A DNA stretch of 37,068 bases from Blastocatellia bacterium (GCA_036274535.1 DASUFM010001023.1:1-37068), one strand, 5' to 3'; counted from the stretch's first letter, positions 17,730-37,068 are shown. The notes: generated by a model not told the origin, from the sequence alone. Made by a program: numbers and translations.

Positions 17730-20700
17730 TCAAGAAGCCTGACCTTCTCTGGTCAGGCGACGTTTGTTCTGGGTGAGAGCTTGTTTTTGCCGTCTGGCTC
17801 TTTCACTCGCTCTTTCGAGGGACGGCTCATCCCGACCCTGTCGAGTCAGATATTCAGCGAGCGCGACGACGGTTGGATATCTGAACAAATCCACCACCGA
17901 CAGCTTCCGCTGCAATACTATTTGCAGCTTCCTGAGCATCTGAGCCAGCAGCAGTGAGTGGCCGCCCAGAGCGAAGAAGTTGTCGTTGAGACCTACTTTC
18001 TCTACTTTGAGCGCCTCCTGCCACACATTGGCGATCTTCTTCTCCAAATCGGTTCCGGGCGCGACATATTCAACACCCGCCTCTAAACTCCGCCCGCCTT
18101 GCTCCAGCAACGCCCGGCGATTAACTTTGCCGTTTGGATTCAAAGGAAACGTATCCAGAACGGTGAACTTCGACGGGACCATATATTCCGGCGTCTTCGA
18201 TTGCAGGAATCGGCGCAATTCGGCGCCGGTCGGAGCGGGGTCGGTATCGGCGACCAGATAAGCTTCCAGATGTTTCTCGCGCGTTTCGTCCTCAACCGCC
18301 AGCACGACGGCTTCACGCACGCCGGGGTGATCCGCTAAAAGGGTTTCGATCTCCCCCAGTTCGATCCGAAATCCCCTGACCTTCACCTGCTCATCGACGC
18401 GTCCAATAAACTCTATATTGCCGTCGGCAAGGTATCTTACAAGGTCTCCGGTGCGGTAATAGCGTTCTCCATCGATCGTGACGAACTTCTCGACGGTCAG
18501 GCCTTCACGCTTCAGGTAACCGCGCGCCACGCCGTCTCCACCGAGCCAGATTTCGCCCGCCACGCCCACCGGAACTGTATAACCGCTCCGGTCAGACACG
18601 CGCAGCCTCACATTTCCAAGGGGACGCCCGATAAGGTTTCGCTCCAGCTTGCGCCCTCGCGGCACGTCATAGCTCGTGCAGATGATGGCACCCTCCGTCG
18701 GACCATAAAGCACGTGTATATCCGCAAGTGGAAAGACTTCGCGCATCTGTTCCAATAGATCCAGCGGGACCCAATCACCACCGACAAAGACCCGGCGGAG
18801 ACGTTCATAACTCAGGCCGCCCATCTGACGCAGGGCGACGATTTGCCGCATAAGGCTCGGGACCGCGTGCAGCATCGTCATCGTCTGAAGGCTTTGAATG
18901 AACTCCTGCGTCTCCAGCATGGACTTTTGCGGGTAGATGACGACTTTTCCGCCGGCTATCAGCGGCGTAAACAACTCGAACAGCGAAATGTCGAAAGCGA
19001 ACGAAGCGAGACACGGCATGACATCCGTCGCGTTAAAGTCGAACCTGGCGGCGCTGCAGGCGATCGTGTTCACGAGATTGCGATGTTCCACCATCACGGC
19101 CTTGGGTCTGCCGGTCGTGCCTGAAGTGTAGATCATGTACGCCATGTTCTCCGGCGTAGCCGCGCATGGAAGATCCGCCGGATCCTCAGCGGCGATGAGA
19201 TCCCAGGAGCCGTCCAGACTCACAACCTTTGACAAAGTGGACGGCGGCGCCTCCCAAAGGCGTGACTGCGTCAGCGTCACTGCGGCCTCCGCGTCCTCAA
19301 TCATGAAAGCCAGCCGCTCCGGCGGGGACTGCGGATCGAGCGGCACATAAGCGCCGCCGGCTTTCAGTATCGCCAATATACCGATAACAGCGTCCAGGGA
19401 GCGTTCGACCAATAGCGCGACGCGCGACTCAGGTCCCACGCCAATCCCTTTGAGGACGCGCGCCAGTTGATTGGAACGAGTGTTCAACTCGCTGTAACTC
19501 AATTGCGCGCCGTCGCACACCACTGCGATGTTCTCCGGCGAACGCGTGACTTGCGCCTCAAACAGTTCGTGCAGACATAAGTGTCGTGGGCAATCGGCGG
19601 CCGTATCGTTCCATTCGACCAGCAACTGTCGCTGTTCCGCTTCGCTCAACAACGGCAGCGCCATCGCCGGCGTCGCCGGACGCGATACGATCGCTTCCAA
19701 TAAGCGTTGGTAATGGCCGATCATGCGCAGGATCGTCGATCGTTCGAACAGGTCTGAATTGTATTCCACCGTTCCGAATAAACGCGTCCCGGCCTCCATC
19801 ATGAAGAGGGTCAGGTCGAACTTGGAGCTGTCGGCGTCCACATCGATCGGACTCAATGTCAGACCTGGCAAATCGACGCTCGGCATCGGCGCGTTCTGGA
19901 GACCGAAGACTACTTGAAAGAGCGGCGAATAACTGAGATCGCGCGGCGGATTCAACTCCTCGACGAGCTTTTCAAAAGGCGCGTCCTGGCGCGAATACGC
20001 GCTCAAACTCGTCTCGCGCACGCGTTTGACCAGCTCGGTATATTTCTCCTCCGGGCGTATCCTGTCGCGTAACACCAGCGTGTTGACAAAGAACCCGATC
20101 AATCCCTCCAGTTCGGCGCTCGCGCGTCCGGCTACGGGCGTTCCAACTACCAGATCTTCCTGTCCCGTATATCGCCACAGCAGCACTTTGAAAGCGGCCA
20201 GCAACGCCATAAAGAGCGTCGCTTCCTCGCGCCGGCTCACACGCCGCAGCCCTTCGCGCGCGTCCGCGTTGATTTCGAACCCCTCACGGGCGCCGCGGAA
20301 GGTCTGCACAGCAGGACGCGGTCTATCTGTCGGCAGTTCCAGAAGCGGCGGTGCGCCGTCTAACTGCTTGCGCCAGTAAGCGACCTCAGTCGCCAGCCCT
20401 TCGCCGTCGAGCCAGGCTCGCTGCCACACGGCATAATCCGCATACTGCGCCGCCAGCTCGTTCAACGGCGCCGGCCGTTCTTCTACATGCGCTGTATACA
20501 GCGCCGCCACTTCGCTGACGAACACGCCCATAGACCATCCGTCGCTGATGATATGGCTCATCGTTACGAGGACGATGTGTTCTTCCTCCGCCAGACGGGC
20601 CGCCGCAACGCGCATGAGCCGGCCCGCGCTCAGATCAAAGGGGGCGCTGGCTTCCGTCTCCATGATCCGCAGGGCGGCTCCTTCCCTCTCTTCCGCCGCC

Positions 20701-28330: not shown

Positions 28331-28409
28331 TAGCTAGCGTGAGTTCGACGTAAAAGTATGGGCAAGGACAATGAGCTTATTATCGGTTGAGCAAAATGAA
28401 AATTGCCGC

Positions 28410-29501
28410 TCACCATTGAAGCAAAGCGGATTCGATAGTGGAGCCGGGGCCCATTGTTATCATGACGCCATAGTCTCCACGCGCGACTACGCCTTCGTTG
28501 AGCAAACGCTGATATGAAAAAAGAAATGAGCCACTGGACAGATTGCCATAGTCACGTAGCACCCCGCTTGTATGCCTCAGGTCGTGAGCGGACAAACCTA
28601 AATTCACCCTGATGGCATCGATTACTTTCTTGCCGCCGGAATGGACCAGCCAATGTGCGATGTCCGAGCGCCGAAGGCCGGCGCCGCGAAGCAGGCCATC
28701 AATCGCGCTCTCGACGTTAGCGCCCACCACATAAGGAATTTCGGGGTCCAGAAAGAAACTGAATTTGCCCTGCGATTCATTCCAATCGTAACGCATGGCG
28801 TCTATCGCTTCGGTGATGATGCGACTATGAAATTTCAGGAGAGCCGGTCCGGCGGACGCCCGATCATCAGGGACCGCGATTAGAGCTATGGCGGCGGCTC
28901 CATCACCGAACAAGCTGTTTACCACGGCAGTCCTCAGAGTTTCGTCAATTACATAACCAGCCGAACAGATTTCAACGCATAACATGATTGCGAGCTTGCC
29001 AGGGTTGGCCAGAGCCCAGCTGGACGCGGCGTTGAGCGCGTTCAGGCCGCCATTGCAGCCCATGCCGACGACGTCGAGGCGCACGCAGTCCGGCGAAAGG
29101 GGAAGCTCACGGCACAAAAATGCGCTCAGACCCGGGCTCAAGAAACCTGTCGTCGTCACGCAGCAGAGATAAAAGACGTCTGAGCTACGCGCATTCAAGC
29201 TGTTCAGGCACTCCCGGATCGCGCGCGCCCCGATCTCGATTGCGCAAGTGCGATGCTTGTTCAGCAATTCGCTTTGAGTTTCGGTTCGGATCGAACCATT
29301 TTTATCAGGGCCGGGCAGGGTAAGATAGCGGCGTTCGATAAAGGTGTTAAGAAACAGCGAACGGAAGCGGCGGTCTTTTATGTTAAATATGTCAAGCAAT
29401 TCAGTCTGTGAATAGGATGTAGGCGGGGTCGCCGTGCCAACGCCTGCAATCCTTGTCCGCAGAGAAGATGACAATTGGTGGGAAGGATGCTGTATATCCA
29501 C
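28410..29501 (-). CDS. dpgA: Type III polyketide synthase, DpgA-like (3,5-dihydroxyphenylacetyl-CoA synthase candidate).
   Basis: 363 aa. Catalytic triad context: VVGMGCNGGLN (Cys), VHSGGKKVID (His), YGNLSSGSFLF (Asn). C-terminus: MGPGSTIESALLQW. The family-level call is firm. The DpgA assignment rests on the DpgB/C/D-like and transaminase genes in the cluster. GTG start preceded by GAGAGG. Confidence 0.75.
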   Translation of the reverse strand: MDIQHPSHQLSSSLRTRIAGVGTATPPTSYSQTELLDIFNIKDRRFRSLFLNTFIERRYLTLPGPDKNGSIRTETQSELLNKHRTCAIEIGARAIRECLNSLNARSSDVFYLCCVTTTGFLSPGLSAFLCRELPLSPDCVRLDVVGMGCNGGLNALNAASSWALANPGKLAIMLCVEICSAGYVIDETLRTAVVNSLFGDGAAAIALIAVPDDRASAGPALLKFHSRIITEAIDAMRYDWNESQGKFSFFLDPEIPYVVGANVESAIDGLLRGAGLRRSDIAHWLVHSGGKKVIDAIRVNLGLSAHDLRHTSGVLRDYGNLSSGSFLFSYQRLLNEGVVARGDYGVMITMGPGSTIESALLQW

Positions 29502-29662
29502 GATTTACCTCTCAAGGGCAAAATTAACCTGGCGTTTGGGTCAATTTGTTTTTGTCACACATAACAACTAACCCAGCCGCGTTTTGTCTAAAGTCGGGAT
29601 GTAAGCGCGCCCATAAACGAATTGGCCAGGGCTAAAATGGCCCTTAATTACAAACTATCAGG

Positions 29663-30418
29663 TTAACCACAGCGCACCTCGTGATATGGGAACGACAGCG
29701 TCTTGGGGCGCCAGTCCGCGTTGCGCGCCGAGATAATCTGCGCTACGGCGGCGTCTTCCGGCTGCAGGCGTTTATATCTCGTCGTAGAGCTGTCGCCAAA
29801 GCGCTCATACCTGACCAACTCATCGCGAAGTGTGGCGACCTTTGTATGCTTCGCGCACCGCCTCCGCCAGTCAGCGTCGGTGCCGTAGTAGCCTGCCAGA
29901 GCCTCGTCGTACCCACCGATCAGCCAGAACATCTCGCGCGTCATGAGCATCGAATTCGGGTGATGACGAATCTTCTTCCCATTGTGCTCGCGACGGGAGA
30001 ACCTGTAGATCATCTCCGGATCGTGTTGCCCGGCAGTCAGTCGCATCGCGACATCGCGTTCGATCACGTGGTCCATGTCGGTCATTACGACCCAACCTTC
30101 TTCGGCGTGGCGCATACCGATGTTGCGGGCCGCGCTCCAGTTCCACCGAACGTCGACCTCGATCCGAAACAGGCGGAGTTGATAGGGAAACTCCTGACCA
30201 CGCAATACGTACTCGGCCGGAGAGTCAGGGGAGCCGTCATCAACCACGATGACCTTGATCCTTTCGCGCAGAGTCGGCGGATACGAACGCCACGTATCGA
30301 GTTGGATCTGAAAAAACTTTGGGTTCTCGTAGTATGGGTACACAAACTGGATTGTCTTAGGAGCGCCGTAAATCAAATCGATCAGCGGAGCGTCATCAAA
30401 TCCTGGCGCATTAAACAT
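29663..30418 (-). CDS. Family 2 (GT-A) glycosyltransferase, small soluble type.
   Basis: 251 aa. IKVIVVDDGSPDSP (the DxD-type nucleotide-sugar motif region), NIGMRHAEEGWVVMTDMDHV. Confidence 0.7.
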   Translation of the reverse strand: MFNAPGFDDAPLIDLIYGAPKTIQFVYPYYENPKFFQIQLDTWRSYPPTLRERIKVIVVDDGSPDSPAEYVLRGQEFPYQLRLFRIEVDVRWNWSAARNIGMRHAEEGWVVMTDMDHVIERDVAMRLTAGQHDPEMIYRFSRREHNGKKIRHHPNSMLMTREMFWLIGGYDEALAGYYGTDADWRRRCAKHTKVATLRDELVRYERFGDSSTTRYKRLQPEDAAVAQIISARNADWRPKTLSFPYHEVRCG

Positions 30419-30503
30419 TGCTGTCCCTTTCTAAGTTAAGAAATCAGCTTATTTGATCCTCGATCTCGAAGGGTGTAGTTTGCGGAAAAATTGATAACAT
30501 CGT

Positions 30504-31796
30504 CTAGCGAACCTCACAGCGATCATTCACGAATTTCCCGAATCGACGTATTCCTTCACGAATTGTTTCCTCATCAAGACAGCTGAACGACAGCCTGATC
30601 TGGCATTCGTGTCCGGCGCCAATAGTGAAGAAGCGCATCGGAGTAACTATTACCCCGTACTGTGATACGCAGCGCTTGAGTTCCTCTTTCCCGAAGCTGA
30701 ATGGAAGCGTCACGACAAGAAAATATCCTCCCTTCGGGCGATTCCAGCGAACTCCCGGCGTATTCTCGAACTGGGATGAGAGACATTCGAGCATCACGTC
30801 ACGATTTCGCCGGAGGCGCTCCTTCTTGGGAGAAACCGCAGATTGCAGGGAACCGCCTTGATCAAGCAGGATGCCAGCCACTACGCCCTGCAACAATGGA
30901 GAAGAGTTCACCGTAAGAAGACTTTTTACCTTCGACAATTCCATGGCCAGGATATTCCCTGTGCGCGCCTCTCTCTGGTCCGCCACGAGATAACCTAGCC
31001 TCAACCCGGGAAAAAGGGTCTTTGCGAAGCTGCCGATATATAGGACCATCTTCTCCGCTCCTGTATCGAGCGCTTTGATCGGCGGCGCATGCGTTCCCTC
31101 ATAAGCGAACATGCCATAAGGGTTGTCCTCAATGATCAAAACCCCATGCTTCTTGCAGACTTCCAGAAGCCGCCGGCGACGCTCCGGGGCCAGGGATGTG
31201 CCCAGGGGATTGTTGAAGCTCGGTATGTCATAGAAAGCGCGGGGACGGCCAAGAGCCCGGCACCGCTCAATTGCTCGTTCAACTTCTTCAGGATCGACTC
31301 CTTCATCATCCGCCGGAACTGGAATCACGCGAATGCCAAGAATTCGGGCCAGACCGGTAATGCCTATATAGGTCGGATCGCTCACCAATAGGACGTCGCT
31401 CGCAGGGTCAAATAAGCCACTCAGGGCGATGGCCATTGCTTCCTGCGCGCCCACGGTGACGATGATGGACTCGGCGGACACATGAATACCTTCATCCTTG
31501 GCAAGCTGGTCGGAAATCAAATCGCGGATTATGCCGTTGGTGCGATTGTATTGTCCCAGATCCTGCCAAACTCGCAGTTCCTCGCAACCGCCATTGTTCG
31601 CGGCGAATCGCACGAAGCTCTTGATCGCGCGCAGTGAATTCTCCACATCAAAAAGGTCCGCCGGAGGTCGGCCCGGCGCAAATGAGATGGCGTCCGGGTA
31701 GTCAAGCACAACCTCATTCAGAAAATTCATGACGTCCATCAGCGGATCAAGTAAGCAATCCCTCAATTCTATCCCGGCGACACCTGTTTCCATCAT
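30504..31796 (-). CDS. Class I/II PLP-dependent aminotransferase, candidate HpgT/Pgat-like phenylglyoxylate transaminase.
   Basis: 430 aa. AISFAPGRP, IEDNPYG, YIGSFAKTLFPGLRLGYLV (PLP Lys). The specific role is inferred from the Dpg gene context. Confidence 0.7.
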   Translation of the reverse strand: MMETGVAGIELRDCLLDPLMDVMNFLNEVVLDYPDAISFAPGRPPADLFDVENSLRAIKSFVRFAANNGGCEELRVWQDLGQYNRTNGIIRDLISDQLAKDEGIHVSAESIIVTVGAQEAMAIALSGLFDPASDVLLVSDPTYIGITGLARILGIRVIPVPADDEGVDPEEVERAIERCRALGRPRAFYDIPSFNNPLGTSLAPERRRRLLEVCKKHGVLIIEDNPYGMFAYEGTHAPPIKALDTGAEKMVLYIGSFAKTLFPGLRLGYLVADQREARTGNILAMELSKVKSLLTVNSSPLLQGVVAGILLDQGGSLQSAVSPKKERLRRNRDVMLECLSSQFENTPGVRWNRPKGGYFLVVTLPFSFGKEELKRCVSQYGVIVTPMRFFTIGAGHECQIRLSFSCLDEETIREGIRRFGKFVNDRCEVR

Positions 31797-31824
31797 TCAC
31801 CCTCCGCAGCGGCTTTAGAAGATG

Positions 31825-32997
31825 TCATTTCACCGCCTTTTGCAAAACCGCCTCCAGATTGAACGCCGCCCTCGTGCGGGAGATCTCCTCGTTGAGCGCA
31901 TCCATCCGCTGACGCGTCTCCGCCACTAACGCGCAATCCAACTCATAGTACCGTTCGATGGCTTCTTGAAACGCCTCTTCAAAGTCCGGGCGCTCTTCAG
32001 GCGCTTTCAGATGAGTAGACACTCCAAGTTCCTGCAGACGGCGCGCCACACCGTCTCTGTCATACGTCCGTGTTCCTATCGTTATCGTCGGCAGTTTATG
32101 AATAATCGGATAATGATACGTGCCAGATCCACACTGATGAATCATCATGTCGACATTCTTGCAGACATAATTCATTGGCAGGTATGCGGCGTAGAAGTAA
32201 TATTTTCGTTCTTCAGCGCTGAGGCCTTCGAGCTCGACACTTGTCACGACGGCTGTCCTTTGCCGGATGAGGCGCCGCATACAGGATAATATCTGCGGCC
32301 CCACCCGCGCCACAGTCCCGAGTGTAATGTAGATCCTCCTCCGCTGCGCGTGCTCCGCGAAAAAGCGCTCAAGCGCCGCATAGTTCCCTTCATCGCCGGG
32401 CGCGCCATCAGCGCGAGCCGGCAAGTCGATAACCTGCTCCATCATGTAATCTTCCAGTAACAAAGGGCCGGAGAAAAAATACGTCGGATCATAACTCAGT
32501 GACGGAGGAAGCTGTTCGATAGACGGAATACCTGGGACAATCTTGCAGTTGGCGCTGAAAAAATCGGAAAACGTCCGCGGCTGCGGCAATCCCATAAAAG
32601 CCATATTCGGTATCTGCGTCATGTCAAATTTCAGACTAAACTCGTAGTTAGGATCGCAGGGCGCGCCGCCGGGAAACAGGCCTGTTCGTTGGATCGTCAC
32701 TCTCGGCAACTTTACTAACGCAGTGGTCAGGCCAGTCACTGGATTAGTGTCATCGATAACGACGTCGGGAGAGAAAAGTCCGTAAGCGCGCAGTTCAGTG
32801 CGAAAGGAATGTTGGTTGTATAAATAATCAATATCGATGGAATCTAAGCCGAATTTGGCCGCAAGGTGGCGCTTGCTCCGAGGCAATAGAAACGCGGTTT
32901 TGTAAGCTGCTTTGTCGAGCATCCGGCTCAACGCGATGAGCGGAATGCTATGTGAAATCGAGCCGCCAAGCGGGATGAATAAGACTCTCATATACAC
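31825..32997 (-). CDS. GT-B fold glycosyltransferase of the GT1 (MGT/Gtf-like) type.
   Basis: 390 aa. N-terminus MRVLFIPLGGSISHSIPLIAL. C-terminal nucleotide-sugar motif region: MIHQCGSGTYHYPIIHKLPTITIG..YDRDGVARRLQELGV. An alternative ATG at 32991 is possible. Confidence 0.65.
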   Translation of the reverse strand: MYMRVLFIPLGGSISHSIPLIALSRMLDKAAYKTAFLLPRSKRHLAAKFGLDSIDIDYLYNQHSFRTELRAYGLFSPDVVIDDTNPVTGLTTALVKLPRVTIQRTGLFPGGAPCDPNYEFSLKFDMTQIPNMAFMGLPQPRTFSDFFSANCKIVPGIPSIEQLPPSLSYDPTYFFSGPLLLEDYMMEQVIDLPARADGAPGDEGNYAALERFFAEHAQRRRIYITLGTVARVGPQILSCMRRLIRQRTAVVTSVELEGLSAEERKYYFYAAYLPMNYVCKNVDMMIHQCGSGTYHYPIIHKLPTITIGTRTYDRDGVARRLQELGVSTHLKAPEERPDFEEAFQEAIERYYELDCALVAETRQRMDALNEEISRTRAAFNLEAVLQKAVK

Positions 32998-33085
32998 CCC
33001 TCCACTTTTCGTAATGACTCAATGGCTGAATCCTGATTTATGCTCAGGATACAAGTTTACGCCGGCTTTTTGTAATGCCTGGTCG

Positions 33086-33943
33086 TTAGTAACGCTTAGA
33101 GCCCACTGTTTGGGTTAAACTATTTATCAGTGTAAGCCAATCCCTCATCTCTTCCTTCTTATCACGTACGACTGCGCGTTCTTCAATAGACGGTAAGGGC
33201 TGGGTCAAGGATTCACCTGCCATCTCTATCAACTCATCCATGGTTGAGCATTTTATTCCAAAATCGATCTGGTAATCTTGACACAAATCGGATTTTAGAC
33301 CAACGACTACGCAACCGGCGACTAAAGCTTCTTTAGGGGGCCGCGGTGAACCTTCCGTGTCATTTCCAACCCAGACGAAAACACGCGCATCTTTCAAAGC
33401 TTCAGCGACCTGCGTTTCCGTGAAATTAACGATTTCCACCAGCTTATCTCCATAGCGCCGCCGAAGCCTTTGCGCAATTTCGGGATGCTTATGTGGCCTT
33501 GTCATATAACAGATCTGATTTTTTTTGGGTCGGCCGTCATACTCGAAGATAGAGCGATCAATGCTAGGGAGCATAAGTGTCGTAGGTATCTCCTTATGTT
33601 GTTGTTTGACCCATGAGACAATCGCAGGCGACTTACAGACAACCAGATCGGCATGAGGCTTAATCGGGGCATACTGACCCAGGGCAAAACAAACGTGATA
33701 CTTGACTAAGTCATAATGCGGCTGATAAACCTCAGGGTATATCAAGACCTGAGGAACATACGAGTAATCATAAAGCCTGCAGCGATGCTCGAACCAGGAA
33801 GCCAGATCTGATTTGCCCAATGGGGCGATACCGCTATTTCCAACCTGGCTTAACCATTCGCATACCGAATACAGTGATTTTACTCCCCCCGCTATGTCTG
33901 AGGGAGCGCAAACGACAGAGTCGATCCGTATTGACTCACCCAT
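33086..33943 (-). CDS. Hypothetical protein; short, divergent GT-B (GT4-like) glycosyltransferase candidate.
   Basis: 285 aa. IRIDSVVCAPSDIAGGVKSLYSVCEWL resembles a GT4 N-terminal GG loop. TEGSPRPPKEALVAGCVVVG resembles the EG.G....EA.A.G.PVV motif. This is weak and by eye only. The gene is clearly lower in G+C than its neighbours. Confidence 0.35.
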   Translation of the reverse strand: MGESIRIDSVVCAPSDIAGGVKSLYSVCEWLSQVGNSGIAPLGKSDLASWFEHRCRLYDYSYVPQVLIYPEVYQPHYDLVKYHVCFALGQYAPIKPHADLVVCKSPAIVSWVKQQHKEIPTTLMLPSIDRSIFEYDGRPKKNQICYMTRPHKHPEIAQRLRRRYGDKLVEIVNFTETQVAEALKDARVFVWVGNDTEGSPRPPKEALVAGCVVVGLKSDLCQDYQIDFGIKCSTMDELIEMAGESLTQPLPSIEERAVVRDKKEEMRDWLTLINSLTQTVGSKRY

Positions 33944-33995
33944 GTGGAATCCTTTCTGAGATTAACAATCCAGGATTGCCAACGATCGCTTTTGA

Positions 33996-34841
33996 TCAGC
34001 GACACATCCATTTTGGATCGCGTTTCTGGACAAACGCCAGCGGCCCCTCCCGGCAATCATCGCTCTTGCGGCGGATTTCCTCCGCTTCATAGGTCGTGGC
34101 AAAGGCCTCTTCCAGAGACAAGTGGCAGGATGCCAGGCCGACTTGCTTCAAGGCCCGCACCGAGAGCGGGGCGCAACGCAAAATATCATCGACCCACTGC
34201 TGGACACAGGCATCGAGATCGGCGGCGGGTACAACCTCATTGACCAGGCCAAGCTCATATGCGCGTTCCGCGTTGATGCGGCGTCCAGTAATCAGGTAGC
34301 CCATTGCCACCTTAAAAGGTATTTGCCGAATCAGCCGAAACAAGCCACCCGCGCCCGGAATCAAGCCGAGCCTGGCTTCAGGCAGGGCAAAGCATGCTTC
34401 ACGCGCGGCGATGATGACGTCGCAGGCCAGAGCCAATTCGAAACCTCCGCCGAACGCATAACCATTGACTCGCGCAATAACCGGTTTGCTCAGGCCAAAT
34501 CGCTCGGTCAATCTTGGCCATCCGGGCCTCCCGCGGCTCCCAAAGGTAGTCGGAGGAGCGCCTGCGTTGACGCGCGCAACCAGTTCCTTAAGATCCTGGC
34601 CTACTGAGAATGCGCGCGTTCCGGCGCCCGTCAATACGCCGAGCCAGATCTCATCGTCCTGTTCGAAATCATCCCACGCGCGCCCGAGTTCCACGTGCAT
34701 TCGCTCATCCATCGCATTAAGCGCGTCGGGACGGTCTAAAACGATATAGGCCACTCGCCCGCGCTTTTCGTACCGGACTCGGGCGCGATCATCTGGAGCT
34801 TCGTTTGACTGTTCAGCTAGGGGAGAGGTTGGAGTGTTCAT
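33996..34841 (-). CDS. dpgD: Enoyl-CoA hydratase/isomerase (crotonase) family protein, DpgD-like.
   Basis: [70 protein letters not shown] chose the ATG at 34841 (MNTPTSP...). The ORF-track start at 34907 would overlap the upstream gene. The DpgD label comes from its position after the DpgC-like gene. Confidence 0.7.
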
Positions 34842-34878
34842 GTGAAAAACTCGGCGCGCAAAGCATAAATAGACAGGT

Positions 34879-36228
34879 TCATTTGCGCCATATCTTGCTG
34901 AGCACATCCGGACTGTAAAGACGTTCAGCTTGCGCCAACGCGAATTCGGCCGCGTACTGCAAAAAGATATCGAGCGGCTCCTCAGCCAGGTTCAACATGC
35001 GCCGGTTTGCGACGACTGCGGGGCTGCCGAGTTGCTGGACGCCGCGCTCAATCGCGGCGTCCAGTTCCACCGAATTGACTACTTCGTCGAATAACAGGCT
35101 CGCATCAGGTTCATGCGCCTCAATCTTCCGCCCGGATAAGATTACTTGCCGGCTTTTGCGGCCTCCCAGGCTGCGAAGCAGGCGCAGGTTTGAAAAACCG
35201 GGAACGATGCCTTCCTGCGCCGCAGGCAGACTGAAATAGCTATCGACGGCGGCGATGACGTGATCGAACACAAGCAGCAACTGAGCTCCGCCTCCGATGG
35301 CGAAACTATCCACACACGCGATCCAGGGTTTTTCGAGCGTTCTCGCAGTCGCGCCCCAGTGATCGGGTCGCCCCGCCTCGTCGTCGAGCAGCAGGCCGCG
35401 AAAAATTTTGTTGATAAAGCCCAATTCCCGCCGCAGAAGGAAGTCGACGAATGAGATTTGTCCGGCATGCAACGCCTTCAAATTAATGCCTGCGCTGAAC
35501 ACGCGGCGGCCGGCATAGCGCGGATGGTTCATAACGCCGCCTCGCAGAACACCGACACTTACGCTATCGTCCAGCAACGCCAGATCCACGGCGGTTTCCA
35601 GGTCCTCTACCAATCGGTCATCTTCGGCGTTGAGACAGGAAGTATTGTTGATGGTCAGATACGCCGCATTACCACGTCGCTCAATTAAGACCGAATCGAA
35701 ATCCAATCGGGAACTGTTCCGAAATGATCCGAGCAATTCAACAGCGCGGACTGTAGGCCTCAGCGCTGACTCAACAATATGCCGTCCAATCTTTTGCGAA
35801 CGGAGCATGGCATGGAAAAACAAGGCCTGGTCAATCTCGTAACCTTCCTTCTCGCTCTGCGACAGCGCGCGTTCCTGGACAATCTGCGCCGGCGTGGGCG
35901 TCAGACCGGGACACTGTTCGGCGGCGCCGAAAACCAGTTCGCGCAGTGTTCTGCGTATTTTGAAGCCATGGGTCAAAGCGTCGTAAAGCCAATCAGCATG
36001 GAGCGCCATAAATCGCCGCCGTAATGCGCGGCAGGCGCCATGAATATCGGAAGCGAGGGCCGCCTGTTCCGGTGAACGGGACCGCTTTGGGCCCAGTAGT
36101 TCCAGGAATTTCGCGCCAGACGCGACGTAATCAGCCAGCGCGCGCGCATCTTCTTCGGGCGCAGCGCCAGGAGATGGGCCGGACCGGCGCCATGTATTCA
36201 ACGTGTTTTCGGAGATTGCAAGGGACAT
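34879..36228 (-). CDS. dpgC: DpgC-like crotonase-fold enzyme (candidate cofactor-independent 3,5-dihydroxyphenylacetyl-CoA 1,2-dioxygenase).
   Basis: 449 aa. A helical N-terminal extension of about 190 aa precedes the crotonase core: [78 protein letters not shown]. Size, architecture and flanking crotonases match the dpgB-C-D arrangement. Confidence 0.7.
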
Positions 36229-36267
36229 AGAATATTCAGTGGCTGGGCCATCAAGGCTGGGTAGACG

Positions 36268-37005
36268 CTACACCGCAGACGCTACATCGCGCGCTTTTTC
36301 GAATTCACCTCCGGTAGAGCGGCGTAAGGCGCGATCGCAGGCCGCCAGGTGCGCGCCTAGAGCTTCCTCGAAACTGGTCGACAAGCTATCCTGCATGAGC
36401 CGGCGAGCGATCGCAAAGTCCTCCGGAGGCGCGTTCCGGAGCAGACGCGCGGTCCGCTCCGCTCCGTCCGTTCCGACATCGATGATCTCGTCGATGATGC
36501 GCAGTTCAATTCCTCGCTGCGCAGAAATTTCATCGGCATCCAGCGCTATTTTGCGAGCGCTGGACTCGCCAATTTGTCGCGCCAGTCGATATAGAGTCAT
36601 GCTGGGCCATACGGCCCCGCGGAAAATCGGAGACGGCGCAAAAAAATCCCCTCCGGCGAGACGGCGGTCGGTCACAACCAGAAGATCTAAAGCGACCGCC
36701 GAGCAGGCGTGTTCCACGAATAGAATGGTAGCCGAATTACTGCGCTCGATGCGGCGCAAAACATTCTCCCATTTGCGAACCGACTGAAAGTCAATCTGGC
36801 CTGGCCAAGGGCGAACAGCGGCAGGATCCGCCTGACCGGCCAGATGAATGAGCATGATCGCGCCTGGCCCCAGATCTTCGGCCTGATCGATAGCGCTTCC
36901 CAGTTGCGCAGTCAGCTCACTGCAGACAGGCTCATCACCATTAACTTCTATTTGTACGACCGGACGATTTTTAATAAGGACTGTTGACATGGTATAGCTC
37001 GTCAT
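36268..37005 (-). CDS. dpgB: Degenerate crotonase-fold protein, DpgB-like.
   Basis: 245 aa. It has the crotonase-like layout (VVQIEVNGDEP..., ILFVEHACSAVALDLLVVTDRRLA) but lacks a canonical oxyanion motif. It lies immediately upstream of the DpgC-like gene. Start uncertain (ATG at 37005 or 36990). Confidence 0.55.
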   Translation of the reverse strand: MTSYTMSTVLIKNRPVVQIEVNGDEPVCSELTAQLGSAIDQAEDLGPGAIMLIHLAGQADPAAVRPWPGQIDFQSVRKWENVLRRIERSNSATILFVEHACSAVALDLLVVTDRRLAGGDFFAPSPIFRGAVWPSMTLYRLARQIGESSARKIALDADEISAQRGIELRIIDEIIDVGTDGAERTARLLRNAPPEDFAIARRLMQDSLSTSFEEALGAHLAACDRALRRSTGGEFEKARDVASAV

Positions 37006-37068
37006 TTTTTGAAGTTGAAACAGGCGACGCTCAGGATTCAGATCGTTGAGCGCCTTTTAGATAGGATT

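Follow-up and report, generated by a model that had tools for sequence, protein, structure and literature searches.

Gene organization of the dpg region

Contig C1023 (DASUFM010001023.1, positions 1-37068) of the metagenome-assembled genome (MAG) GCA_036274535.1, deposited as Blastocatellia bacterium, carries genes for the supply of 3,5-dihydroxyphenylglycine (Dpg) next to nonribosomal peptide synthetase (NRPS) genes. The whole contig of 37,068 nt, the longest of the 1067 contigs of a MAG that is 81% complete and has a GC content of 57.6%, was analyzed and is referred to as the window. The region of interest comprises eight genes, all on the minus strand. These are, in the direction of transcription, dpgB (36268..37005; an open reading frame (ORF) of 245 amino acids (aa), for which the gene caller favours 240 aa from the second Met); dpgC (34879..36228; 449 aa), encoding a cofactor-free (3,5-dihydroxyphenyl)acetyl-CoA 1,2-dioxygenase; dpgD (33996..34841; likely 281 aa), encoding a helper protein of the enoyl-CoA hydratase type; hyp285 (33086..33943; 285 aa), encoding a compact GT4-like glycosyltransferase of GT-B fold; a gene for a GT1-like glycosyltransferase of the macrolide/EryCIII type (31825..32997; 390 aa); a gene for a pyridoxal phosphate (PLP)-dependent, HpgT-like arylglycine aminotransferase (AT) (30504..31796; 430 aa); a gene for a GT2 (GT-A) glycosyltransferase (29663..30418; 251 aa); and dpgA (28410..29501; 363 aa), encoding a type III polyketide synthase (PKS), 3,5-dihydroxyphenylacetyl-CoA synthase. 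Past dpgA lie a free-standing condensation (C) domain and then the NRPS genes.

The original prediction, made from the sequence alone, described a contiguous dpgB-C-D group (37005-33996) and a dpgA gene (29501-28410) 4.5 kb away, with four genes in between. The ORFs were found at these coordinates, dpgD ends 4494 nt before dpgA starts, and the intervening genes are those for hyp285, the GT1-like enzyme, the AT and the GT2 enzyme, so that the gene order is B-C-D-[GT4-like, GT1, AT, GT2]-A and not the contiguous A-B-C-D order of the canonical glycopeptide dpgABCD operon. The placement of dpgBCD at one end holds for the contig, which terminates 63 nt upstream of dpgB, but this is not necessarily the end of the cluster. 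A single dpgA-B-C-D operon is typical of glycopeptide clusters but is no general rule.

For dpgD, the open frame extends to position 34907 (303 aa). Because the family match described below begins at residue 46 of this long ORF and an independent gene call on a contig of the Logan collection gave a product of 281 aa, the start codon is probably at 34841 and not at 34907, in which case dpgD does not overlap dpgC.

The eight genes are co-directional with intergenic gaps of 28-161 nt, and no terminator-like sites were detected between them, such sites being fewer than in shuffled sequence. These features suggest that the eight genes are probably co-transcribed as one unit, in which case the split layout should carry no functional cost.

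The split was also found outside the source assembly. A Logan contig from run SRR25158403 matched the source with 100% identity across 5345 nt, from dpgB to the start of the AT gene, and a contig of another run, SRR31638520, was collinear from the end of dpgC through dpgD, hyp285 and the GT1-like gene to the AT gene at 86-92% nucleotide identity. Recurrence of the same order at 86-92% identity indicates that a diverged relative shares the arrangement. As two independent assemblies agree, an assembly error was ruled out as the origin of the split.

Identity and catalytic residues of DpgA, DpgB, DpgC and DpgD

Comparison with the NCBIfam equivalog models, which have curated cut-offs, placed all four proteins above the threshold of the corresponding Dpg family, in agreement with the prediction that they are genuine orthologues. 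DpgA scored 596 bits against NF042429 (cut-off 425), with all profile positions covered (1-350 of 350), and less than 60 bits against the next families, which are of the FabH type. DpgB scored 168.8 bits against NF042431 (EnCoAhydt_DpgB; cut-off 140), DpgC 569.9 bits against NF042432 (cut-off 530) and DpgD 447.9 bits against NF042430 (cut-off 400).

The Cys-His-Asn triad of DpgA was intact, as had been predicted: the Cys in GMGCNGG, the His in VHSGG and the Asn in YGNLSS aligned to the triad columns of Mycobacterium tuberculosis Pks11 (4JAO), and the column of the catalytic Cys is occupied by Ser in the C-to-S mutant entry 4JAT. The best solved relatives, Pks11 and Pks18, matched DpgA with only about 140 bits. 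An alkylresorcinol or pyrone synthase, which was considered as an alternative identity for this PKS, was ruled out by the NF042429 score. From its sequence, DpgA is predicted to make 3,5-dihydroxyphenylacetyl-CoA from malonyl-CoA alone.

DpgC aligned to the Streptomyces toyocaensis enzyme (PDB 2NP9) over residues 30-448 with 57% identity (E 3e-134), the Pfam ECH_1 match spans residues 295-400 only, and the protein contains the quoted motif [21 protein letters not shown]; the hallmark DpgC architecture described in the original prediction, a helical N-domain followed by a crotonase core, was thus recovered. In this alignment, nine of the nine active-site and oxygen-pocket residues that were compared are conserved. 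They are Glu189, Arg254 and Gln299 for substrate binding and catalysis (E202, R267 and Q316 in the source protein), Ile235 and Gly296 of the oxyanion hole (I248 and G313), and Leu237, Ala319, Ile324 and Val425 of the oxygen pocket (L250, A336, I341 and V442), the roles being those that we take to have been assigned in the 2007 structural papers of Widboom and of Fielding. The chain numbering of 2NP9 equals the native numbering plus 2, and each residue type on this list was found at its predicted position; Lys428 and Val429 of DpgC as named in PMC4618494 confirm the offset. Nothing in the source protein aligns to the gate residue Phe432, the protein ending three residues past the equivalent of V429.

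Phylogeny of the dpg genes

A maximum-likelihood tree of 26 rows was built for DpgC, and quick trees with SH-like approximate likelihood ratio test (SH-aLRT) support were built for DpgA, DpgB and DpgD. DpgC grouped, with support of 100/99, with the proteins of four loci: L028 (soil contig Ga0307478_10000948), L030, L003 (Acidobacteriaceae MAG CP_BM_RX_R8_11) and L026 (genome G079, a relative of that MAG). A "true DpgC" group, also supported at 100/99, holds this acidobacterial clade together with the DpgC of S. toyocaensis and those of other actinomycetes, Xanthomonas and Roseateles. The same acidobacterial grouping was recovered for DpgA (SH-aLRT 98), DpgD (99) and DpgB (97), so that each of the four proteins falls in one acidobacterial clade with support of 97-100.

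Since DpgA, DpgB, DpgC and DpgD share their nearest relatives, they appear to have been inherited as one set. On these gene trees, the split is a rearrangement of, or an insertion into, a single inherited dpg set. A separate acquisition of dpgA was also considered and was ruled out, as its nearest relatives are those of the other three genes. The tetranucleotide correlation between positions 28400-37068 and the rest of the MAG was 0.930, the 5th percentile of equal-sized pieces being 0.943; this composition would fit an island gained by horizontal transfer within a contig that is binned correctly.

The searches for DpgC also retrieved a second, well separated DpgC-like clade, with 38-45% identity to the source DpgC and scores below the equivalog cut-off. 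Its members (L027, at G378:C33:94181-95404; L010-L013; L035-L038) come from Acidobacteriota, Hyphomicrobiales, Chloroflexota, Dormibacterota and Solirubrobacterales. Since none of the loci examined, several of them short, showed a neighbouring dpgA gene, the substrate of this clade is probably a different arylacetyl-CoA. A further observation was made in Streptomyces sp. PmtG (JAVLTM010000008.1), where a 1995-aa ORF (L014:9944-15931) fuses an N-terminal DpgC-like crotonase to a condensation-adenylation-thiolation-thioesterase (C-A-T-TE) NRPS module. The DpgC-like region of this fusion has 51% identity to the source DpgC over 321 aa and forms a long branch in the DpgC tree, and genes encoding an acyl-CoA dehydrogenase, a HAD-like protein and a phosphopantetheinyl transferase lie upstream of the fusion ORF.

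An aminotransferase of different evolutionary origin

The original prediction counted a transaminase among the Dpg supply genes. The AT is indeed of the arylglycine type and lies inside the dpg string, and its evolutionary origin differs from that of the dpg genes. It is a PLP enzyme of fold-type I (Pfam Aminotran_1_2, E 1.6e-35), with the PLP lysine aligned in SFAKTL. Its identity to every dpg-linked aminotransferase, those of its own dpg clade included, was only 38-43%, as against 60-64% to acidobacterial aminotransferases that adjoin HmaS/HPPD-like genes in NRPS loci. The family to which it belongs is large and acidobacterial: among the candidates scored, 1668 proteins reached E ≤ 1e-40, the source AT has 55-64% identity to the best 120 members listed, and the named relatives among the matches listed were MAGs of Acidobacteriia, Vicinamibacterales and Thermoanaerobaculia. 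Many of these homologues have been annotated automatically at JGI as "(S)-3,5-dihydroxyphenylglycine transaminase".

All four of the closest homologues with usable context (P0006, P0007, P0010 and P0018) lie directly downstream of a gene for an HPPD/HmaS-like protein of about 370 aa, in loci that also hold NRPS, halogenase, thioesterase or methyltransferase genes; a fifth homologue, P0071, adjoins a small glyoxalase-family gene and an Ldh_2 gene. In the aminotransferase tree, the source AT nests in the HmaS-linked clade, set apart by a 95/92 branch from both the acidobacterial dpg-linked enzymes (98/94) and the dpg-linked HpgTs of actinomycetes and proteobacteria (99/99). The AT is thus not an orthologue of the aminotransferases that travel with dpg genes, and no aminotransferase of the dpg-clade type was found elsewhere in the assembled genome.

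The most economical reading of these sequence relationships is that an aminotransferase of the 4-hydroxyphenylglycine (Hpg) pathway replaced, or stood in for, the one that normally travels with this dpg lineage. Such recruitment is biochemically plausible, because in glycopeptide producers one HpgT serves both Hpg and Dpg. The HmaS-linked contexts of its relatives point to arylglyoxylates as the substrate class of the AT, and the enzyme is predicted to accept 3,5-dihydroxyphenylglyoxylate.

Pairs of HmaS/HPPD-like and aminotransferase genes were common in acidobacterial NRPS loci (metagenome contigs L041, L042, L044 and L045), often together with halogenases dependent on flavin adenine dinucleotide. 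No Hmo-type flavin oxidase was seen in the HmaS-aminotransferase loci that were read. Chemistry of the hydroxyphenylglycine type may be widespread in Acidobacteriota. No link of Dpg or Hpg genes with Acidobacteria was found in the literature searched.

Glycosyltransferase genes between dpgD and dpgA

The first gene of the block that separates dpgD from dpgA, hyp285, had been called a GT4-like hypothetical gene. This description stands at the level of fold but has no significant sequence match in Pfam behind it, the best being Glycos_transf_1 with E 0.07 and 13.1 bits against a cut-off of 26.4. An AlphaFold (AF2) model with a mean confidence score (pLDDT) of 94.1 matched GT4 enzymes of GT-B fold in Foldseek with E values of 1e-10 to 1e-6 and TM-scores of about 0.6-0.7, the top matches being an A. 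minor glucosyltransferase, SenB, PimA, BshA, MshA and AviGT4. The protein has 178 homologues, and the motif E197-x7-E205 (EX7E) was invariant in an alignment of 43 sequences. With 285 aa, the protein falls about 60-100 residues short of the usual GT4 length.

With a GC content of 47.3% and a third-position GC content (GC3) of 47.9%, compared with 54-60% and 58-70% for its neighbours, hyp285 is compositionally foreign to the cluster. Its nearest named homologues are in Pyrinomonadaceae MAGs. The family (P0122-P0240; L046, L047) consists of proteins of about 280 aa for which there is no Pfam model, and it is represented in Pyrinomonadaceae and, within the Verrucomicrobiota, in Chthoniobacterales and others such as Pedosphaera. 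Outside the source locus its members are encoded by solitary genes that have APH, beta-lactamase, acetyltransferase and methyltransferase genes as neighbours, a setting that hints at a role of the family in small-molecule modification.

The GT1-like protein matched Pfam EryCIII-like_C with 28.6 bits, just below the cut-off of 31.7, and its sole sequence match in the PDB was 2YJN (E 2e-5; chain named "glycosyltransferase"), which we take to be EryCIII. The GT2 protein matched Pfam Glycos_transf_2 with E 1.6e-11. The block of GT4-like and GT1 genes was present in none of the dpg relatives retrieved. In the closest dpg relative (L028; 70% DpgC identity), a GT2 gene (L028:12258-13295) directly follows the aminotransferase gene; similarity between this gene and the source GT2 gene was not detectable by tblastn.

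NRPS adenylation domains and the predicted use of the product

Specificity codes of the four amino-acid adenylation (A) domains in the window were extracted using GrsA as the reference, with a numbering which we presume to be the standard one and which reproduces the GrsA code DAWTIAAICK. The code of the A domain in the second NRPS module (NRPS2; 18084..19586, minus strand), DIFHFGLII(K), is arylglycine-like. The other three codes are DIWEITADDK for the N-methylating A domain of NRPS1, which is diamino-acid-like; DLFNNALTYK for the A domain of the FAAL-NRPS; and DAWFLGHVVK for the A domain of the condensation-adenylation-thiolation-epimerization (C-A-T-E) module, the last two codes being left without an assigned substrate type. 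The cluster also holds an mbtH-like gene and SbnA/SbnB genes for the supply of L-2,3-diaminopropionate (Dap).

No Stachelhaus codes of Hpg or Dpg domains were found in the literature search, and the structure of the first A domain of the teicoplanin synthetase was compared instead. This structure, 8GIC, is an Hpg-accepting domain crystallized with L-Hpg (PMC10687080). It was the best PDB match of the NRPS2 pocket segment; the code read from the alignment, DAFHLGLLC, is identical at 5 of 9 positions, and the His that hydrogen-bonds the phenol (H237 in 8GIC) is conserved. This resemblance supports an arylglycine substrate for one of the four domains, in line with the phenylglycine-type A domain that had been predicted, and does not discriminate between Dpg and Hpg. 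Dpg is the most likely substrate of NRPS2, because dpgA-D are present and the window contains neither a gene for a thiamine diphosphate (ThDP)-dependent decarboxylase nor one for an aldehyde dehydrogenase.

An alternative in which the NRPS uses Hpg, supplied by the HmaS-lineage AT together with a LarA homologue and an HmaS encoded off the contig, while the dpg genes serve a second position or tailoring, is unlikely. It would account for the position of the AT in the HmaS-linked clade and for the resemblance of the A-domain pocket to the Hpg-loading domain of the teicoplanin synthetase, including the His that contacts the 4-hydroxyl group. The only HPPD/HmaS-like gene in the MAG, a partial gene on the 2.9-kb contig C1059 with 46% identity to HmaS-like proteins, could be counted in its favour, but C1059 shows no NRPS context, the gene may encode an ordinary HPPD, and no HmaS gene is located within the 37-kb window. 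Moreover, only one of the four A domains is of the arylglycine type, and the use of one HpgT for both amino acids in glycopeptide producers makes the lineage of the AT compatible with Dpg.

Less likely again is the possibility that the dpg genes make an aryl unit that is not an amino acid, such as a 3,5-dihydroxyphenylacetyl or, as in kendomycin-type routes, a 3,5-dihydroxybenzoyl group, and that the AT serves another substrate. Sets of dpgABCD that have no aminotransferase and include a ThDP enzyme and an aldehyde dehydrogenase do exist in Micromonospora, Actinoplanes and a Mycobacterium MAG, and the source AT does lie outside the lineage that normally accompanies dpg genes. Neither a ThDP decarboxylase nor an aldehyde dehydrogenase is encoded in the window, however, and the location of the AT inside the dpg string, the arylglycine (HmaS-linked) contexts of its relatives and the presence of an arylglycine-type A domain all favour Dpg as the product.

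Host of the gene cluster

The contig encodes a 1038-aa receptor of the TonB type, with a CarboxypepD_reg domain and an outer-membrane beta-barrel, which indicates that the organism is diderm. Genomes of the same genus gave no close orthologue of this receptor (best 48-54%), its family having more than 100 copies per genome. Among marker genes, rpoB was not found in the MAG, and a partial GyrB, with 49% identity to an Acidobacteriaceae MAG and 46% to Roseateles, was uninformative as to the host; the relatives of the Acidobacteriaceae MAG and those of the source MAG had no members in common. Two relatives of the source MAG in the same class have genomes of two replicons that encode the FMO bacteriochlorophyll protein, which points to Chloracidobacterium and so to Blastocatellia, and the Pyrinomonadaceae homologues of hyp285 agree with this placement. 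The GC content of the contig matches that of the MAG (about 57-58%). The host is non-actinobacterial, and most likely belongs to the class Blastocatellia of the Acidobacteriota. It is very improbable that the locus is a relic, silent or in decay, or that the contig is chimeric or wrongly binned: the MAG is fragmented into 1067 contigs and the composition of the dpg region is slightly atypical, but all eight genes are intact with conserved catalytic residues, the arrangement was recovered in independent assemblies, once at 100% and once at 86-92% identity, and the contig carries a Gram-negative outer-membrane receptor and has the GC content of the MAG.

A proposed mosaic route to Dpg

Taken together, these results support the interpretation, to which we assign a probability of roughly 80%, that all steps to (S)-3,5-dihydroxyphenylglycine are encoded in the region, in a mosaic operon that feeds the neighbouring NRPS. 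In this route, DpgA would condense four malonyl-CoA to 3,5-dihydroxyphenylacetyl-CoA, aided by the crotonase-fold proteins DpgB and DpgD; DpgC, with O2 and no cofactor, would convert this thioester to 3,5-dihydroxyphenylglyoxylate; the AT would convert the glyoxylate to Dpg; and the arylglycine-type A domain would load Dpg into a glycosylated lipopeptide. The dpgA, B, C and D genes may have arrived as one set from a dpg lineage circulating in Acidobacteriota, with the GT4-like/GT1/AT/GT2 block coming to lie between dpgD and dpgA and the AT being recruited from the acidobacterial HmaS-linked lineage.

Several points weigh against this interpretation. The deep branching among the major dpg lineages is not resolved in the DpgC tree, so that no donor can be named. 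The substrate preference of the AT is deduced from sequence, and the NRPS2 code is compatible with both Dpg and Hpg. Beyond the contig end there could be more genes, possibly including another aminotransferase, the MAG being only 81% complete. Finally, the binning is a matter of composition, with a tetranucleotide correlation of 0.963 for the contig, at about the 11th percentile.

The split of the Dpg supply genes was confirmed by their coordinates, by the equivalog models and by independent contigs. The original prediction also held the occurrence to be unusual outside Actinobacteria. The host is indeed non-actinobacterial, but the exceptionality was overstated, as Dpg genes were predicted in Xanthomonas (META-B) in 2013 and both Roseateles aquae and Acidobacteriaceae MAGs carry full sets. 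The new features are the phylum and class of the host, the particular mosaic layout, which at least two populations share, and an aminotransferase recruited from the Hpg lineage; the chemistry is that of the known Dpg pathway, and no new enzymology is implied. We suggest, tentatively, that this may be the first Dpg natural-product pathway of the Acidobacteriota (Blastocatellia), leading to a glycosylated Dap/Dpg lipopeptide by a route put together from a mobile dpgABCD set, the phylum's own Hpg-pathway aminotransferase and three glycosyltransferases, one of them compact and GT4-like, that may decorate the Dpg phenols.

Antibiotics of the vancomycin and teicoplanin classes characteristically contain Dpg, as do a few other peptides from actinomycetes. 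The Acidobacteriota are an abundant soil phylum that is rarely cultured and has, to our knowledge, almost no characterized natural products, and an intact Dpg pathway in this phylum therefore points to unexplored arylglycine peptide chemistry. The discordant AT illustrates the rebuilding of precursor pathways from separate components once they have been transferred horizontally. For genome mining, contiguity of dpgABCD is an unsafe criterion outside glycopeptide clusters.

Occurrence and gene order of other dpg loci

Species-representative genomes and JGI metagenomes were scanned for DpgC, and the sequences and gene order of Xanthomonas META-B were taken from the supplement of PMC3849588. The gene orders retrieved were AT-dpgB-mbtH-dpgA-dpgC-dpgD in the Acidobacteriaceae MAG CP_BM_RX_R8_11 (L003); AT-A-B-C-D in G079 (L026); A-B-(1.5 kb)-C-D-AT-GT2 in the soil contig Ga0307478_10000948 (L028); C-AT-D-M28 peptidase-A-B-sbnA-sbnB in Roseateles aquae APW11 (L009:10001-19809); A-B-C-ThDP enzyme-aldehyde dehydrogenase-D in Micromonospora, Actinoplanes and a Mycobacterium MAG (L004-L006); A-B-C-AT in Streptacidiphilus (L008); and A-B-C-hpgT-D in Xanthomonas META-B. 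Each of these non-glycopeptide loci has its own order or an inserted gene, G079 being the sole exception. Outside glycopeptide clusters, dpg sets are thus normally permuted or interrupted by insertions, and the source layout adds a further variant, which stands out solely by how large its insert is and by the glycosyltransferase genes it contains.

In the loci with a ThDP-dependent enzyme and an aldehyde dehydrogenase between dpgC and dpgD (L004:3824-6922 in Micromonospora wenchangensis, L006:11748-13507 and L005, the latter two in the Actinoplanes and Mycobacterium MAGs), no aminotransferase gene was seen near the dpg genes. By analogy with the kendomycin pathway, from which we take these two enzymes to be markers of a dihydroxybenzoate branch, the route looks as if it would lead to 3,5-dihydroxybenzoate and not to Dpg.

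With the source genome excluded, DpgC scored above the cut-off in 0 of 40 relatives and 0 of 300 genomes of a phylum sample, and in 2 of 61 genomes around the Acidobacteriaceae MAG, that MAG counted. In even samples of other phyla, it was found in 1 of 400 Actinomycetota and 0 of 400 Pseudomonadota. The Dpg pathway is sporadic everywhere, and these counts do not show a special rarity in Acidobacteriota; neither enrichment nor rarity can be deduced from them, because the even sampling is too thin.

Comparison with known systems

The glycopeptide clusters for balhimycin and chloroeremomycin in Amycolatopsis and for A47934 in Streptomyces toyocaensis contain the same five enzyme families as the source locus, and the catalytic residues of DpgC and DpgA are shared. 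Both kinds of locus have an NRPS context, with an A domain that in the source is probably of the arylglycine type. The source locus differs in its acidobacterial host and in its B-C-D...A order, with dpgA 4.5 kb off and three glycosyltransferase genes and the AT gene between. Its DpgA, DpgC and DpgD have about 51-64% identity to the actinomycete enzymes and its DpgB 36-39%, while its AT is of another lineage. The window has neither P450 (Oxy) genes nor other features that mark glycopeptide clusters.

The closest relatives of all four source Dpg proteins are those of the acidobacterial loci L003, L026 and L028, which also have NRPS contexts. Identities to these proteins were 72-74% for DpgA, 63-70% for DpgC, 67-78% for DpgD and 45-58% for DpgB. 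The aminotransferases of these loci, in contrast, form a clade of their own with 38-40% identity to the source AT, and the loci do not have the GT4-like/GT1 block.

The NRPS locus META-B of Xanthomonas, for which a Dpg pathway was predicted earlier (Royer et al. 2013, PMC3849588), resembles the source locus in its Gram-negative host, in its lipopeptide-type NRPS cluster with mbtH and in the aminotransferase gene inserted within the dpg set. Genes for the supply of a diamino acid are also common to both, for 2,4-diaminobutyrate (Dab) in META-B and for Dap (SbnA/SbnB) in the source cluster. Unlike those of the source, its dpg genes fall outside the acidobacterial clade and are not accompanied by a glycosyltransferase block, and its aminotransferase belongs to the dpg-linked clade common to Roseateles and actinomycetes. 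The locus of Roseateles aquae is, like the source, a non-actinobacterial, split dpg set joined to supply genes for Dap; it differs in that its host is a betaproteobacterium, its dpg genes are of another lineage and order, and its DpgC, at 509 bits, scores just below the cut-off. This likeness suggests that peptides combining Dpg and Dap are a recurring theme in Gram-negative bacteria.

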